DNA of 64,000 nt from a phage: NCBI GenBank assembly GCA_021469345.1, contig GCA_021469345.1_3049.1; one strand, 5' to 3'. Every line of letters begins with the position of its first letter. Position 1 is the first letter of the stretch. Of this stretch, positions 1-63,344 are shown piece after piece. The notes beneath the pieces are model-generated. The model was not told the origin of the DNA. It did no database searches and was given only the letters and a program-made list of their open reading frames with translations. The translations under genes were made by a program, and so were the position numbers.

Positions 1-1528
<1,528 letters not shown>

Positions 1529-1531
1529 GCT

Positions 1532-1561
1532 GTTTACAAGTCCCTCGTGTTGTGTTATAGT
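1532..1561 (+). promoter_or_regulatory. T4-type early promoter (GTTTAC -35-like, TATAGT -10-like)
   Basis: gtttacaag...tgttatagt upstream of alc; same 54 bp recurs at 14741. Confidence 0.5.
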
Positions 1562-1585
1562 AGTCTTACTGACATAACATGAGGA
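1532..1585. repeat. 54-bp perfect direct repeat, copy 1 (promoter + leader + SD)
   Basis: Identical to 14741-14794. Confidence 0.85.
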
Positions 1586-1592
1586 CTTTATG

Positions 1593-2096
1593 ATGGATTT
1601 ACAACTTATTACTACTGAAATGGTCGTTGAAGCATACGGTGATACTACAGATGGGATTTCTGTATTCAAAGGAAATCGTCGAGTTGGATATATCACCGAT
1701 CTTAAGAAAGATTTAGCTAAGCAAGTCAAGCGGAAAACGACCATTAAAGAATATCGAAATCGTCGTCTTGAGCAAGCCCGTGATATGCTTCCTGATGCGG
1801 TTGAAGAGATGAAAGTCTTTTTAGAAAATCAGCTTGCGAAATATGATTGTGAAGTATTCATTAATCAGACTCAACCTAATGTTCATATCAATAACTGTAA
1901 ATGCTATATCATCGTTAATCCTTTGACGGGAAAACACCGCCTTGGGATTAGTAATCCAAATCGTAGTGCATCGGATATGGCAGAAGATGTTGAGGCGTGC
2001 TTTAAAATTTCTAAATCTCCGGCTGAACATCATATTTTAATTAACGGTCTTTCTCAAGACGATATTGTAGAGGTTATTAAAACTTTATGCATGTAA
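1593..2096 (+). CDS. alc: Alc-like host transcription inhibitor (by position and length)
   Basis: 167 aa from second ATG (GAGGA 7 nt upstream); sits between rnlA and the pseT cluster as in T4. Confidence 0.6.
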   Translation: MDLQLITTEMVVEAYGDTTDGISVFKGNRRVGYITDLKKDLAKQVKRKTTIKEYRNRRLEQARDMLPDAVEEMKVFLENQLAKYDCEVFINQTQPNVHINNCKCYIIVNPLTGKHRLGISNPNRSASDMAEDVEACFKISKSPAEHHILINGLSQDDIVEVIKTLCM

Positions 2097-6264: not shown

Positions 6265-6298
6265 ATGCTTTAAGAATTATTTGTTATTATTAATTCAT
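6254..6298. repeat. ~45-bp near-identical repeat, copy 1 (contains MotA-box promoter)
   Basis: ggtaaataaatgctttaagaattatttgttattattaa closely matches 63301-63344. Confidence 0.8.
6265..6296 (+). promoter_or_regulatory. T4 middle-mode promoter (MotA box + -10)
   Basis: aTGCTTtA at 6267-6273, then 12 nt, then tattat; upstream of gene 31. Confidence 0.55.
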
Positions 6299-6320: not shown

Positions 6321-6656
6321 ATGTCTGAAGTACAACAGCTACCAATTCGTGCTGTAGGTGAATATGTTATTTTAGTTTCTGAACCTGCACAAGCCGGTGA
6401 TGAAGAAGTTACAGAATCAGGACTTATTATCGGTAAACGTGTTCAAGGTGAAGTTCCTGAACTGTGTGTAATTCACTCTGTTGGTCCTGATGTTCCTGAA
6501 GGTTTTTGTGAAGTTGGTGATTTGACTTCTCTTCCAGTTGGTCAAATTCGAAACGTTCCGCATCCTTTTGTAGCTCTGGGTCTTAAGCAGCCAAAAGAAA
6601 TTAAACAAAAATTCGTTACCTGTCACTATAAAGCTATTCCGTGTCTTTATAAGTGA
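6321..6656 (+). CDS. 31: co-chaperonin gp31 (GroES analogue for capsid folding)
   Basis: 111 aa; matches remembered T4 gp31 length and position; SD AAAGGAAAAA. Confidence 0.85.
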
Positions 6657-7474: not shown

Positions 7475-7478
7475 GTTG

Positions 7479-7505
7479 AGGACTCCTTCGGGAGTCCTTT
7501 TTTAT
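7479..7505 (+). terminator. rho-independent terminator
   Basis: aggactcc-ttcg-ggagtcct hairpin followed by a T-run. Confidence 0.7.
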
Positions 7506-7527
7506 TTTCCAAAGATTGCATAAAGTT

Positions 7528-7560
7528 GTTTACAGTATGGTTCCTTTGTGATAGTATTAT
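7528..7560 (+). promoter_or_regulatory. T4-type early promoter
   Basis: GTTTAC 7528-7533 ... tgtgatagtattat. Confidence 0.5.
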
Positions 7561-7584
7561 TTTACACAAACAAAGGAGAATAAA

Positions 7585-12308: not shown

Positions 12309-12331
12309 GAATAAACACTAGAGAGGTTATG

Positions 12332-14380
12332 ATGGAACTTATTACAGAATTATTTGATGAAGATACTACTCTTCCGATTACAAACTTAAATCCAAAGAAG
12401 AAAATACCACAAATTTTTTCAGTTCATGTTGATGACGCAATTGAACAACCAGGCTTTCGTTTATGTACCTATACATCTGGAGGTGATACTAATCGTGATT
12501 TAAAGATGGGCGATAAAATGATGCATATTGTTCCTTTTACATTAACCGCTAAAGGTTCAATTGCTAAATTGAAAGGTCTTGGTCCAAGCCCAATTAATTA
12601 TATCAATTCGGTTTTTACTGTTGCAATGCAAACAATGCGTCAGTATAAAATTGATGCCTGCATGCTTCGTATTCTTAAGTCTAAAACCGCCGGTCAAGCT
12701 CGACAAATTCAAGTTATTGCTGATAGACTTATCCGTAGTCGTTCAGGTGGCAGATACGTCCTTCTTAAGGAACTCTGGGATTATGATAAAAAGTATGCAT
12801 ATATTCTTATACATCGCAAAAATGTATCACTAGAAGACATTCCAGGGGTTCCGGAAATTAGTACCGAGCTCTTTACTAAAGTTGAATCGAAGGTCGGTGA
12901 TGTTTATATCAATAAAGATACTGGAGCTCAAGTAACTAAAAATGAGGCAATTGCAGCATCTATTGCACAAGAAAATGATAAACGTTCTGACCAAGCTGTA
13001 ATCGTTAAAGTTAAAATTTCCCGTAGAGCAATTGCACAAAGTCAGTCATTGGAATCTTCTAGATTTGAAACACCGATGTTTCAAAAATTTGAGGCTTCAG
13101 CGGCAGAATTAAATAAACCAGCGGACGCGCCTTTAATTTCTGATTCTAATGAATTAACGGTAATTTCTACTTCAGGATTTGCACTAGAGAATGCTCTTAG
13201 CAGTGTTACAGCTGGGATGGCATTCAGAGAAGCTTCTATAATTCCTGAAGATAAAGAATCCATTATTAATGCAGAAATAAAAAATAAAGCTTTAGAAAAA
13301 TTACGAAAAGAATCTATTACTTCAATAAAAACTTTAGAAACTATTGCTTCTATCGTCGATGATACTTTAGAAAAATATAAAGGTGCTTGGTTTGAAAGAA
13401 ATATTAACAAACATTCGCATTTAAATCAAGATGCTGCAAATGAGTTAGTACAAAATTCTTGGAATGCAATAAAAACAAAGATTATTCGAAGAGAATTACG
13501 TGGATATGCTCTTACCGCTGGATGGTCATTACATCCTATAGTCGAAAATAAAGATTCATCTAAATACACACCAGCGCAAAAACGCGGAATTCGTGAATAT
13601 GTAGGTTCAGGATATGTAGACATGAATAATGCTCTTTTGGGATTATATAATCCAGATGAGCGTACAAGTATTTTAACAGCATCTGAAATAGAACAAGCCA
13701 TTGATAATTTAGATTCAGCCTTTAAAAATGGTGAACGATTACCAAAAGGTATTACTTTGTATCGTTCACAACGAATGTTACCTTCAATATATGAAGCAAT
13801 GGTAAAAAATCGAGTTTTTTATTTTAGAAACTTTGTGTCAACATCATTATATCCAAATATTTTTGGTACTTGGATGACTGATTCATCTATAGGTGTTTTA
13901 CCAGACGAAAAGCGTCTAAGTGTTTCTATTGATAAAACTGATGAAGGACTAGTAAATTCTAGCGATAATTTAGTTGGAATTGGATGGGTTATTACTGGGG
14001 CTGATAAGGTCAATGTTGTTTTACCCGGTGGAAGTTTAGCGCCTTCAAATGAAATGGAAGTCATTTTGCCACGTGGATTAATGGTCAAAGTTAATAAAAT
14101 AACCGATGCATCTTACAACGATGGAACAGTTAGAACTAACAACAAGCTTATTCAAGCTGAAGTTATGACCACAGAAGAACTCACCGAATCGGTAATCTAT
14201 GACGGAGACCATTTAATGGAAACTGGTGAATTGGTTACAATGACAGGTGATATAGAAGACAGAGTTGACTTTGCATCATTTGTTTCATCAAATGTTAAAC
14301 AGAAAGTAGAATCATCTCTTGGAATTATTGCGTCTTGCATAGATATTGCAAACATGCCTTACAAGTTCGTTCAAGGATAA
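12332..14380 (+). CDS. alt: Alt ADP-ribosyltransferase (packaged, modifies host RNA polymerase)
   Basis: 682 aa from second ATG; ART-like R / S-T-S / E-x-E elements in the C-terminal half (LYRSQ..., FVSTSLY..., MEVILPRG); same length and position as T4 Alt. Confidence 0.88.
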   Translation: MELITELFDEDTTLPITNLNPKKKIPQIFSVHVDDAIEQPGFRLCTYTSGGDTNRDLKMGDKMMHIVPFTLTAKGSIAKLKGLGPSPINYINSVFTVAMQTMRQYKIDACMLRILKSKTAGQARQIQVIADRLIRSRSGGRYVLLKELWDYDKKYAYILIHRKNVSLEDIPGVPEISTELFTKVESKVGDVYINKDTGAQVTKNEAIAASIAQENDKRSDQAVIVKVKISRRAIAQSQSLESSRFETPMFQKFEASAAELNKPADAPLISDSNELTVISTSGFALENALSSVTAGMAFREASIIPEDKESIINAEIKNKALEKLRKESITSIKTLETIASIVDDTLEKYKGAWFERNINKHSHLNQDAANELVQNSWNAIKTKIIRRELRGYALTAGWSLHPIVENKDSSKYTPAQKRGIREYVGSGYVDMNNALLGLYNPDERTSILTASEIEQAIDNLDSAFKNGERLPKGITLYRSQRMLPSIYEAMVKNRVFYFRNFVSTSLYPNIFGTWMTDSSIGVLPDEKRLSVSIDKTDEGLVNSSDNLVGIGWVITGADKVNVVLPGGSLAPSNEMEVILPRGLMVKVNKITDASYNDGTVRTNNKLIQAEVMTTEELTESVIYDGDHLMETGELVTMTGDIEDRVDFASFVSSNVKQKVESSLGIIASCIDIANMPYKFVQG

Positions 14381-14383
14381 ATC

Positions 14384-14735
14384 ATGGAACTTATTACATA
14401 ATTATTTGACGGCGCTTCGGCGCCGGTTGTTAACTTAAATCCTAAGCATAAAATACCACAAATTTTTGCTATTCAAGCCGGCGAAGAAAGCGTGCTTCCT
14501 GGATTTAGATTTTGTACATACACCTCTGGCGGTGATACAGATAAAACGTTAAACCAGGCGACAAAATGATGCATATCGTAATGATAGGTGTTAATGAGAA
14601 ACTATCATTAGTTAAGCTTAAAAACTTGGGTGGAAATCCAATTGGTGTCATTAATGCTGTTTTGATACTGCTCTTCAAACAATGAAACAGTATAAAATCG
14701 ACGCATGCCTATTACGCGTACTAAAAAGTTCAAAA
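14384..14735 (+). pseudogene. degraded 5' fragment of an alt paralogue
   Basis: Nucleotide similarity to alt 12332-12720 (atggaacttattaca..., ...aaaataccacaaatttt..., ...ggtgatac...aaaatgatgcatat..., ...aaaatcgacgcatgcct...) with a stop after codon 5, frameshifts and deletions. Confidence 0.7.
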
Positions 14736-14740
14736 TGTGG

Positions 14741-14770
14741 TTTACAAGTCCCTCGTGTTGTGTTATAGTA
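14741..14770 (+). promoter_or_regulatory. T4-type early promoter (repeat copy)
   Basis: Same sequence as the promoter at 1532; upstream of ORF 14801. Confidence 0.5.
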
Positions 14771-14794
14771 GTCTTACTGACATAACATGAGGAA
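14741..14794. repeat. 54-bp perfect direct repeat, copy 2
   Basis: Identical to 1532-1585. Confidence 0.85.
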
Positions 14795-14800
14795 CACAAA

Positions 14801-15091
14801 ATGAAATCTTCTTTACGCTTTTTAGGTCAAGAACTTGTAGTTGAAGGCGTTATTCCTGCTGATAACGCTTTTAATGAAGCAGTTTATGATGAATTTATCA
14901 AAATTTTCGGAACAGATAAAAAGTTTGGAATTTTTCCTTCTGAAAATTTTTCAAAGCCAGAACAGACTGAAAGTATTTTTCAGGGTGTAGTAACAGGTAA
15001 ATTTGAGTCAGAAGCTCCGGTAAAAATTGAAGTTTATATTGAAGACAGTTTAGTTGCTTCAGTTGCTGCTTTTATTTCATTCCGTAAATAA
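14801..15091 (+). CDS. hypothetical protein (alt.-x region)
   Basis: 96-aa ORF with ATG and SD GAGGAA supplied by the repeated leader. Confidence 0.55.
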   Translation: MKSSLRFLGQELVVEGVIPADNAFNEAVYDEFIKIFGTDKKFGIFPSENFSKPEQTESIFQGVVTGKFESEAPVKIEVYIEDSLVASVAAFISFRK

Positions 15092-15095
15092 AAAC

Positions 15096-15117
15096 ATGGG
15101 GACCGAAAGGTCCCCAT
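15096..15117. terminator. bidirectional hairpin terminator
   Basis: atggggacc-gaaa-ggtccccat between convergent ORF 14801 (+) and gene 54 (-). Confidence 0.65.
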
Positions 15118-27600: not shown

Positions 27601-28605
27601 ATGTTTAAAAAGTATAGCAGTCTTGAAAATCATTACAACTCTAAATTTATTGAAAAACTTTATAGCCTGGGATTGACTGGCGGCGAATGGGTAGCTCGTG
27701 AAAAAATTCATGGAACAAACTTTTCTTTGATTATTGAGCGTGATAAAGTAACTTGCGCTAAACGTACTGGACCGATTCTTCCTGCTGAAGATTTCTTTGG
27801 GTATGAAATTATTCTAAAGAATTACGCTGATTCCATTAAAGCAGTACAAGATATTATGGAAACTTCAGCGGTTGTATCTTATCAAGTTTTTGGCGAATTC
27901 GCTGGACCTGGCATTCAGAAGAATGTTGATTATGGTGATAAAGATTTTTATGTATTTGACATTATTGTCACTACAGAAAGTGGTGATGTAACTTATGTTG
28001 ATGATTACATGATGGAATCGTTTTGTAATTCATTTGGGTTTAAAATCGCTCCACTTTTGGGTCGTGGTAAATTTGAAGATCTTATTAAACTTCCAAATGA
28101 TTTGGATTCTGTTGTTCCGTCTTATAATTTTACCGTAGATAATGCAGGTTTAATTGACGCTAACAAATGTGTTTGGAAAGCTGAAGCAAAAGGCGAAGTA
28201 TTTACCGCTGAAGGATATGTATTGAAACCTTGTTATCCTTCTTGGATGCCTAATGGCAATCGTGTAGCAATTAAATGCAAGAACTCTAAATTTAGCGAAA
28301 AGAAAAAGTCTGATAAGCCTATTAAAGCTAAAGTTGAGCTATCAGAAGCTGATAATAAATTGCTGGGAATTTTAGCTTGTTACGTTACACTGAACCGGGT
28401 AAATAACGTTATTTCTAAAATTGGCGAAATTGGTCCTAAAGATTTTGGAAAGGTGATGGGACTAACTGTTCAAGATATTTTGGAAGAAACTTCTCGTGAA
28501 GGTATTACTCTAACTCAAGCGGATAATCCTTCTTTGATTAAAAAGGAATTAGTTAAAATGGTACAAGATGTACTTCGTCCGGCTTGGATTGAATTGGTAA
28601 GTTAA
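27601..28605 (+). CDS. rnlB: RNA ligase 2
   Basis: 334 aa; nucleotidyltransferase lysine motif KIHGTN; same length as T4 Rnl2. Confidence 0.9.
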
Positions 28606-28610
28606 ATAAA

Positions 28611-28635
28611 AAGGGACCGAAAGGTCCCTTTGTTT
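28611..28635. terminator. bidirectional hairpin terminator
   Basis: aagggacc-gaaa-ggtccctt + T-run between convergent rnlB (+) and gene 24 (-). Confidence 0.7.
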
Positions 28636-29918: not shown

Positions 29919-29945
29919 TGCGCTTTCCTTTTGGTTTATATGATT

Positions 29946-29953
29946 TATTTATA
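29946..29953 (-). promoter_or_regulatory. late promoter for gene 24
   Basis: TATTTATA on plus strand about 28 bp upstream of the gene 24 start. Confidence 0.6.
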
Positions 29954-29967
29954 CCATAAAAACAACT

Positions 29968-29988
29968 AAAGGGACCCGAAGGTCCCTT
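29968..29988 (-). terminator. rho-independent terminator after gene 23
   Basis: aagggacc-cgaa-ggtccctt hairpin; U-rich on the minus strand after the stem. Confidence 0.7.
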
Positions 29989-61293: not shown

Positions 61294-61990
<697 letters not shown>

Positions 61991-62002
61991 TTTCACAAAG
62001 TT

Positions 62003-62035
62003 GTTTACACGTTGATGAGGTAGTGATACTATTAT
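62003..62035 (+). promoter_or_regulatory. T4-type early promoter
   Basis: GTTTAC 62003-62008 ... TGATACTATTAT; -10 inside inverted repeat tgatgag/ctcatca. Confidence 0.5.
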
Positions 62036-62062
62036 CTCATCAAAATTAATTAGGAAAATAAA

Positions 62063-62350: not shown

Positions 62351-62367
62351 TAAATATTTCACAAAGT

Positions 62368-62400
62368 TGTTTACATAGGGTTTTAGTTGTGATACTATTA
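62368..62400 (+). promoter_or_regulatory. T4-type early promoter
   Basis: Shares tttcacaaagttgtttaca with the 62003 promoter; -10 tgatactatta inside inverted repeat ataggg/ccctat. Confidence 0.5.
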
Positions 62401-62426
62401 CCCTATCAACTACCGAGGAGAATAAA

Positions 62427-63307: not shown

Positions 63308-63344
63308 ATATGCTTTAAGAATTATTTGTTATTATTAACTCATA
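63301..63344. repeat. ~45-bp near-identical repeat, copy 2
   Basis: Matches 6254-6298. Confidence 0.8.
63311..63340 (+). promoter_or_regulatory. middle-mode promoter (MotA box + -10) upstream of the tRNA cluster
   Basis: TGCTTTA at 63311-63317 then tattat about 12 nt downstream. Confidence 0.5.

Follow-up and report, generated by a model that had tools for sequence, protein, structure and literature searches.

Why do two genes of a T-even phage that lie 13 kilobases (kb) apart have the same intergenic DNA in front of them, letter for letter? The question is raised by a phage DNA of 64,000 nucleotides (contig GCA_021469345.1_3049.1; "the window" is this whole stretch), which belongs to a Tequatrovirus, is ~97% identical to T4 and has as its plus strand the direction of early transcription in T4. 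An exact sequence of 54 base pairs (bp), GTTTACAAGTCCCTCGTGTTGTGTTATAGTAGTCTTACTGACATAACATGAGGA (the 54-mer), occurs on this strand at 1532 to 1585, ahead of alc, and at 14740 to 14793, ahead of alt.-3. In the explanation that we consider probable, the T-even phages have an intergenic expression cassette, an early promoter and leader with a predicted hairpin, of which the two 54-mers are paralogs, and their identity is kept by gene conversion. Taken as a whole, the evidence also makes it probable that one copy drives alc and the other alt.-3 and that both genes are expressed immediately after infection.

The repeat and its promoter

A recount gave 54 matches in 54 positions and a start-to-start distance of 13,208 bp, in agreement with the perfect direct repeat, some 13.2 kb apart, of the initial annotation. 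The coordinates given there were correct for the first copy; those of the second (14741 to 14794) were one base too high. Its placement of the copies upstream of alc and of an open reading frame (ORF) beginning at 14801 was also borne out by ORF analysis, Pfam and annotation, and the latter gene is alt.-3. The two loci are thus made up as follows.

1532 to 1585, plus strand: cassette copy 1 (alc copy), exact repeat, occupying 54 of the 61 nucleotides from the rnlA stop codon to the alc start codon
1590 to 2096, plus strand: alc, inhibitor of host transcription, downstream of copy 1 (ORF; Pfam ALC PF17527, E = 2.6e-92; T4 annotation)
14740 to 14793, plus strand: cassette copy 2 (alt.-3 copy), exact repeat, between the remnant of a second alt gene and alt.-3
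14801 to 15091, plus strand: alt.-3 (DUF5498, 96 amino acids), downstream of copy 2 (ORF; PF17602, E = 1.4e-64; T4T annotation)

The flanks of the two copies are unrelated: identity ended at once, with t/g one base upstream and c/a one base downstream. Dinucleotide-preserving shuffles of the window gave not a single match to the 54-mer, even with up to three mismatches. The window has eight plus-strand sites of the form GTTTAC...TAnnnT, and apart from the 54-mer pair the other 27 pairs among them agreed in register at no more than 34 of 54 positions (mean of all 28 pairs, 25). The identity of the 54-mers therefore goes well beyond the early-promoter consensus.

The 54-mer is densely occupied. 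A -35 hexamer, TTTACA (positions 2 to 7), is followed by a 17-nucleotide spacer, an extended -10 element, TGT-TATAGT (22 to 30), a predicted transcription start (+1) at A37 and a Shine-Dalgarno (SD) sequence, GAGGA (50 to 54). The positions of +1 were inferred from the spacing to the -10 box. The leader between the predicted +1 and GAGGA is 13 nucleotides long, and the start codon follows the end of the repeat after 4 (alc) or 7 (alt.-3) nucleotides. alc opens with two adjacent ATG codons (ATGATGG, window positions 1590 to 1595), and its start is annotated either way in relatives (504 or 507 nucleotides), which gives a spacing from SD to start of 4 or 7 nucleotides. In window coordinates, the promoter cores are:

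1533 to 1561, plus strand: copy 1 promoter core, -35 TTTACA at 1533 to 1538, TG at 1553 to 1554, -10 TATAGT at 1556 to 1561; predicted +1 at 1568
14741 to 14769, plus strand: copy 2 promoter core, -35 at 14741 to 14746, TG at 14761 to 14762, -10 at 14764 to 14769; predicted +1 at 14776

In a scan with the sigma-70 consensus, both copies scored 10 of 12 matches and had the TGn of an extended -10 element. Transferred to T4 (AF158101) by locus offsets, the predicted starts fall at ~136,300 (alc) and ~123,057 (alt.-3), and the annotation of phage Lutter carries a promoter at the site of copy 2. T4 early promoters are of the UP/-35/TGn/-10 type (Hinton 2010, PMC2988021), and the 54-mer shares with them the GTTTACA -35 region, the 17-nucleotide spacer, TGn, a TAnnnT hexamer, A-rich upstream DNA and the position directly before early genes. 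Indeed, both copies have the anatomy of a T4 early promoter, as expected from the initial reading of the repeat as promoter, 5' untranslated region and SD sequence. They differ from it in two respects: the -10 hexamer is TATAGT and not TATAAT, and the pair shares spacer, start region and leader as well, whereas ordinary T4 early promoters have only the consensus positions in common. Candidate UP elements, A-rich runs upstream of the cores, are aaaaattataaaaaattt at 1494 to 1511 for copy 1 and ctaaaaagttcaaaatg at 14721 to 14737 for copy 2; these runs differ between the loci and lie outside the repeat, in coding or remnant DNA.

If each copy serves the gene behind it, alc and alt.-3 should be expressed early. 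In T4, both give early RNA and early protein, while alt.-1 and alt.-2 have middle RNA, alt is late and rnlA has early RNA and late protein (PMC9697503). Since alt.-3 is early while the genes just upstream of it are middle or late, an early promoter of its own is plausible, and so is the co-regulation of the two genes put forward in the initial annotation, for which these RNA and protein classes are indirect support.

A different early-promoter family is found at 7515 to 7568, 61990 to 62043 and 62356 to 62409. Its members share an extended upstream block, ATTTCACAAAGTTGTTTACA, and in addition GTGATACTATTA, and are 69 to 78% identical, which is how similar T4 early promoters ordinarily are.

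Age of the pair and probable exchange between its copies

The identity could have a simple cause: one locus may have received the cassette from the other not long before the origin of this phage, leaving no time for divergence. The initial annotation had named recent duplication first, and the 54/54 match between sharply unrelated flanks would fit it. A blastn search with the 54-mer did not. It listed at least 500 records with 999 places, and nearly all of these records hold both copies; every record listed was of a Tequatrovirus or an unclassified T4-like phage and had two places, and in every genome examined the copies sat at the same two positions. Moreover, the copies differ from each other at 1 to 5 positions in many genomes, T4, T6 and Shfl2 included, and early promoters occupy both positions already in outgroup genera. 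A recent duplication is thus highly improbable.

The outgroups were JS98 (Dhakavirus), phiC120 (Mosigvirus) and VR20 (Gaprivervirus), all of which have early promoters at the same two positions. The two cassettes within JS98 and within phiC120 aligned with many mismatches and gaps, at about the level of unrelated early promoters of the window, and those of VR20 barely aligned. Thus, promoters at these positions are old, while their near-identity is specific to Tequatrovirus, and the cassette pair is at least as old as this genus. As to the donor locus, the outgroups gave conflicting answers: in JS98 the alc cassette was the closer one to the 54-mer (score, 24 versus 20), in phiC120 the alt.-3 cassette (21 versus 13).

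How, then, have two old copies stayed alike? A scan of IMG/VR with the 3' half of the cassette yielded 9 loci, too few for statistics, and therefore annotated GenBank phage records were used; in total, both copies were taken from 22 genomes or metagenomic contigs. They were identical in 6 of the 22 (this window, RB33, Sf22, one IMG/VR contig, PP01 and UFV10), differed at one position in another 6, among them T4 (53/54; G40A in the alt.-3 copy), and differed at 2 to 5 positions in 10, including T6, Shfl2 and wV7. No difference was fixed between the loci in these 22 genome pairs. The mean distance between paralogs was 1.95 within and 2.23 across genomes, compared with 1.77 (alc) and 2.48 (alt.-3) between orthologs. 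Five alleles, A16, C27, A29, A32 and T34, were found at both loci (hypergeometric P = 0.0025 with 54 sites). Combinations of alleles were shared as well: A29+A32 occurred at both loci in PP01 and UFV10 and at the alt.-3 locus only in P8, HY01 and HZ_ZJUN4, and A32+T34 occurred at the alt.-3 locus in Shfl2 and at the alc locus in SA20RB. These haplotypes are uncoupled from their flanks, since UFV10 and KIT03 differed at 4 of 54 positions in the alt.-3 cassette and at 0 of 150 in the flank next to it. The phage studied here has the commonest haplotype at both loci.

The sharing of alleles and haplotypes, together with the lack of fixed differences, suggests that the two loci draw on one pool of alleles, and from this we infer recurrent ectopic gene conversion of short tracts. 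Sequence comparison thus supports the gene conversion that the initial annotation had offered as its second possibility. The near-identity would be maintained by the phage's own recombination machinery, and a conversion tract would be limited to 54 bp because homology ends there. T4 recombination is reported to manage with patches of homology below 50 bp (Singer 1982, cited in PMC2839356); a repeat of 54 bp is near this limit, which fits a conversion confined to the cassette. As in other cases of interlocus gene conversion and concerted evolution, the paralogs differ no more than orthologs do, the loci have polymorphisms in common and the tract ends where homology ends. Unlike in the usual conversion between dispersed repeats, however, the unit has only 54 bp, near the T4 minimum, and is a regulatory cassette and not a gene. 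A literature search on ectopic conversion between T4 promoters found nothing specific, and the relatedness of the flanks gave no direction of conversion in PP01 and UFV10, the flanks being too similar and mosaic.

Alternatively, there may be no exchange at all. An old duplication held by purifying selection on a densely packed element would also keep the copies similar, the shared variants then being recurrent mutations. Most positions do have a double function. The five shared alleles are without exception transitions, and three of them lie in or near the hairpin loop (see below) or the -10 box, where change is perhaps tolerated or favored, as for G29A, which makes the -10 box TATAAT. In addition, the P value for allele sharing rises to 0.043 if variation is allowed at only about 30 sites. 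We nevertheless consider selection alone unlikely. The two-site haplotypes A29+A32 and A32+T34 are intact at both loci, not one difference is fixed between loci although the pair spans the whole genus, and four differences in the cassette beside an identical 150-nucleotide coding flank, as between UFV10 and KIT03, are not what strong constraint would leave.

Recurrent conversion also bears on a further claim of the initial annotation, namely, that the repeat is a substrate for recombination. A crossover between the copies would delete or duplicate 13.2 kb including genes 30 and 31, which are essential. The claim holds for exchange without crossover only; neither a third copy nor a chimeric junction was present among the matches listed by the search with the 54-mer. 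If conversion is recurrent, the cassette would be a clean example from nature of how a 54-bp regulatory element evolves in concert, and could be used to measure rates of ectopic conversion in a lytic phage. When T4-like phages are edited near alc or alt.-3, sequence exchange between the cassettes should be expected.

A predicted hairpin over the ribosome-binding site

RNA folding added a second layer to the element. In RNA of the 54-mer, positions 12 to 25 were predicted to pair with 40 to 53 and positions 28 to 31 with 36 to 39. The resulting stem, CCUCGUGUUGUGUU/GACAUAACAUGAGG plus an inner AGUA/UACU, is A/U- and G-U-rich and overlaps the -10 box and the start site. It has a minimum free energy of -22 kcal/mol (z score, -5.39), and none of 200 shuffles was as stable. 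The same fold was dominant when the RNA was extended to 111 nucleotides of genomic context (z = -4.5 for copy 1 and -4.4 for copy 2), and in both contexts GAGG of the SD sequence was predicted to pair with CCUC.

1543 to 1584, plus strand: predicted copy 1 hairpin in read-through RNA, 5' arm at 1543 to 1562 (spacer and -10 box), 3' arm at 1567 to 1584, SD GAGG at 1581 to 1584
14751 to 14792, plus strand: predicted copy 2 hairpin, 5' arm at 14751 to 14770, 3' arm at 14775 to 14792, SD GAGG at 14789 to 14792

The entire 5' arm (positions 12 to 31) is upstream of the predicted +1 (position 37), and a transcript made from the cassette's own promoter would lack this arm. Indeed, RNA beginning at the predicted +1 was essentially unstructured (-1.8 and -2.2 kcal/mol; z ~ -0.3). 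The calculated cost of opening the SD sequence was 9.7 kcal/mol in read-through RNA and 1.3 kcal/mol in the own transcript of copy 1; for copy 2, the values were 10.5 and 2.9 kcal/mol. All 18 distinct natural variants of the cassette retained the hairpin, with energies between -15.8 and -25.6 kcal/mol. At the low diversity of these variants, covariation did not confirm the hairpin: one pair changed in a compensatory manner (C15-G50 to U15-A50), several switched between G-U and Watson-Crick, a similar number of changes were disruptive, and 97.5% of the cells were paired. The alc cassette of JS98 has a predicted SD-occluding helix of its own, CUCCUCAU/AUGAGGAG, with 8.6 kcal/mol.

These predictions suggest the following mechanism. 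The promoter in the cassette would provide alc and alt.-3 each with an immediate-early transcript in which the ribosome-binding site is free, because this RNA would start within the 3' arm, with the SD sequence unpaired. RNA entering from upstream, from rnlA in one case and as the late alt transcript in the other, would fold into the hairpin and bury the SD sequence. With the read-through RNA silenced and the own transcript free, translation of alc and alt.-3 would be restricted to the period of the early promoter. Such a translational silencing of read-through RNA is a prediction of the folding models; the early classes of alc and alt.-3 in T4 fit the mechanism.

The hairpin might instead act on transcription. 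As proposed for the promoter-early stem-loop (PeSL) cassettes of T4-type phages, it could be an attenuator or insulator that stops or lowers transcription coming from rnlA or alt, with any effect on the ribosome-binding site incidental. The reduction of lacZ expression by PeSL stem-loops was about that of a strong terminator (PMC2839356), the base of the stem is G+C-rich (CCUC/GAGG) and the alc copy is followed by ACUUUAU. On the other hand, a U tract is absent after the alt.-3 copy (GAGGAACACAAAAUG), and a terminator scan called neither copy an intrinsic terminator. T4 genes that lie behind alc in the same orientation are transcribed, which speaks against attenuation without separating the two models. 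Attenuation is the main rival of the translational reading; we regard it as doubtful.

A role of the inverted repeat at the level of DNA, as a cruciform or as a protein-binding site that adjusts the opening of the promoter or directs recombination, would make the RNA fold a by-product. Other early promoters (4511, 7920, 62003 and 62369) bracket their -10 boxes with inverted repeats that do not touch the SD sequence, and Arbiol et al. speculate on a DNA-binding protein that recognizes PeSL stems (PMC2839356). A complementarity of 18 bp that reaches exactly into the SD sequence would not be needed by DNA, however, and the stem contains G-U pairs, which are stable only in RNA. We therefore consider this explanation improbable. 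A search of Rfam found no RNA family over the repeats at E values up to 1.

Several observations weigh against an early-only cassette kept uniform by conversion. The UP-element region lies outside the repeat and is specific to each locus, and the two promoters therefore need not match in strength; a genome-wide map of T4 transcription start sites was not found in the literature. As to the hairpin, 88 of 500 shuffles scored as high for covariation as the real alignment, and about half of the substitutions in the stem break a pair. Five other early-promoter cassettes of the window were folded in read-through context: three had no SD occlusion, one (site 4511) had a weak one, and one (site 7528) had a strong one that may be an artifact of the neighboring terminator at 7478 to 7499. 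With three of five lacking it, occlusion is no general requirement of early promoters. As to conversion, the two copies of one genome resembled each other only slightly more than copies taken from different genomes did (permutation P = 0.06); homogenization within lineages is thus weak, or it is masked by recombination between phages. That all shared alleles are transitions belongs here as well, and at least one of them, G29A, could recur under selection. Finally, the 22 genomes are a nonrandom sample, picked in part for variant copies, and the statistics ignore phylogeny.

Known relatives of the cassette and its neighborhood

Is the cassette of a known kind? PeSL cassettes of T4-type phages (Arbiol 2010, PMC2839356; Comeau 2014, PMC4122927) come closest in architecture, including the PST/T4 pair. 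Like the 54-mer, they are compact intergenic units that run from an upstream stop codon over a promoter and SD sequence to a start codon, with a stem-loop overlapping the promoter; they too are repeated in the genome and offer a patch of homology for phage recombination. The PST/T4 promoter consensus, TTTACW-N17-TAYWAT, almost fits the 54-mer. PeSLs, however, form large, loose families in hyperplastic regions and are linked to the insertion and deletion of ORFs and to mini-circles, whereas the 54-mer has just two near-identical copies, 13 kb apart, that flank essential genes, and the visible outcome of recombination is homogenization and not the shuffling of genes. The stems differ as well. 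PeSL stems are of the Gn-loop-Cn type (RB49/phi1) or of the AGNA-loop-TCNT type just upstream of the promoter (PST); that of the 54-mer is of neither type, but long, A/U- and G-U-rich and, unlike the PeSL stems described, extended to the SD sequence.

The predicted mode of action has its own precedent. For e, soc, 49 and I-TevI of T4, a hairpin that occludes the SD sequence and has a promoter inside it is documented in a review that makes no mention of alc (Uzan and Miller 2010, PMC3014915). As in the predicted fold of the 54-mer, transcripts from upstream hide the SD sequence in a helix, and those of the internal promoter lack the 5' arm. In the four T4 cases, the internal promoter is late (TATAAATA), and the gene is silent early and active late; the promoter of the 54-mer is of the early sigma-70 type. 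An internal promoter that is early and not late would reverse the timing: the gene would be active early and silent in the read-through RNA of later stages.

The element is thus of known kinds, a T4 early promoter and a PeSL-like cassette, with a predicted addition, an SD-occluding hairpin around an internal early promoter. This hairpin, which the initial annotation does not mention, is new in this analysis, as a prediction from RNA folding. If it holds, the cassette would be an early-promoter example of the T4 mechanism by which a promoter-containing hairpin hides the ribosome-binding site, with the timing reversed, and would explain how Alc and Alt.-3 could be confined to the first minutes of infection despite later read-through. 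Nothing known about T4 is overturned; the arrangement, though real and neat, is no great surprise.

A bolder version is that the 54-mer is a portable "early-only" module, an early promoter combined with a silencer of transcripts from upstream, that was installed at the two loci in the Tequatrovirus ancestor and has been kept alike by conversion since. We put this forward tentatively, as possible but not the likelier case. If true, alc and alt.-3 would be a deliberately coupled early pair, and the PeSL-like stem-loops at many T4-type early promoters might in part be translational insulators, beyond their roles as terminators or recombination sites.

Inverted repeats around the -10 box are not restricted to the 54-mer. 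The plus-strand sites 4511, 7920, 62003 and 62369 have GGTAGAG/CTCTACC, GGTACAGG/CCTGTACC, GATGAG/CTCATC and TAGGGT/ACCCTA, respectively, and resemble PeSLs. In VR20, an extra small ORF annotated as "similar to T4 Alc" lies between rnlA and alc (record L026, 14609 to 14928), and its promoter has the -35 box in a hairpin loop, closed by GGGG...CCCC, a PeSL stem of the RB49 type.

The remaining features of the two loci are listed here.

368 to 1528, plus strand: rnlA (RNA ligase 1), the upstream gene and would-be source of read-through into copy 1 (ORF; T4 annotation)
12329 to 14380, plus strand: alt (ADP-ribosyltransferase), a late gene in T4 and source of read-through towards copy 2 (ORF; annotation)
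14381 to 14739, plus strand: remnant of a second alt paralog, alt2 (T4 alt.-1/alt.-2), 359 bp (blastn against phage G4498, which has an intact alt2; note in the T4T annotation)
15096 to 15117, listed on the plus strand, hairpin on both strands: terminator-like hairpin that closes the alt.-3 unit, with gene 54 (minus strand) beyond (terminator scan; terminators annotated at the same spot in relatives)

The structure of the alc locus was conserved in all genomes examined. At the other locus, alt2 has an internal deletion of 1.69 kb (1292 to 2981 of the G4498 record, L002), whose junction, with a 9-nucleotide overlap of the alignments, falls at ~14721 to 14729. The deletion is present in T4, too; alt2 is intact in most Tequatrovirus genomes sampled, and an intact alt2 has a stop codon that overlaps the cassette by its first base. 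The 54-mer was considered as the mediator of the deletion and rejected: the junction is 11 to 19 nucleotides upstream of copy 2, and since the deletion ends short of the cassette, the cassette was not the recombination site.

The terminator-like hairpin behind alt.-3 belongs to a family of three copies in the window, at 15068 to 15114 (the one closing the alt.-3 unit), 28582 to 28628 and 29940 to 29986, with the core GGGACC(G/C)(A/G)AAGGTCCC. Finally, the window contains a second dispersed pair, aaATGCTTTAagaattatttgtTATTATtaa, at 6265 to 6298 and 63310 to 63343, 57 kb apart and alike in 33 of 34 bases. It resembles a T4 middle promoter, with a MotA-box-like TGCTTTA, 12 nucleotides and a -10 box TATTAT, and the copy at 6265 to 6298 is just upstream of gene 31 (start at 6321). 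This may be another pair of promoters kept alike by conversion.

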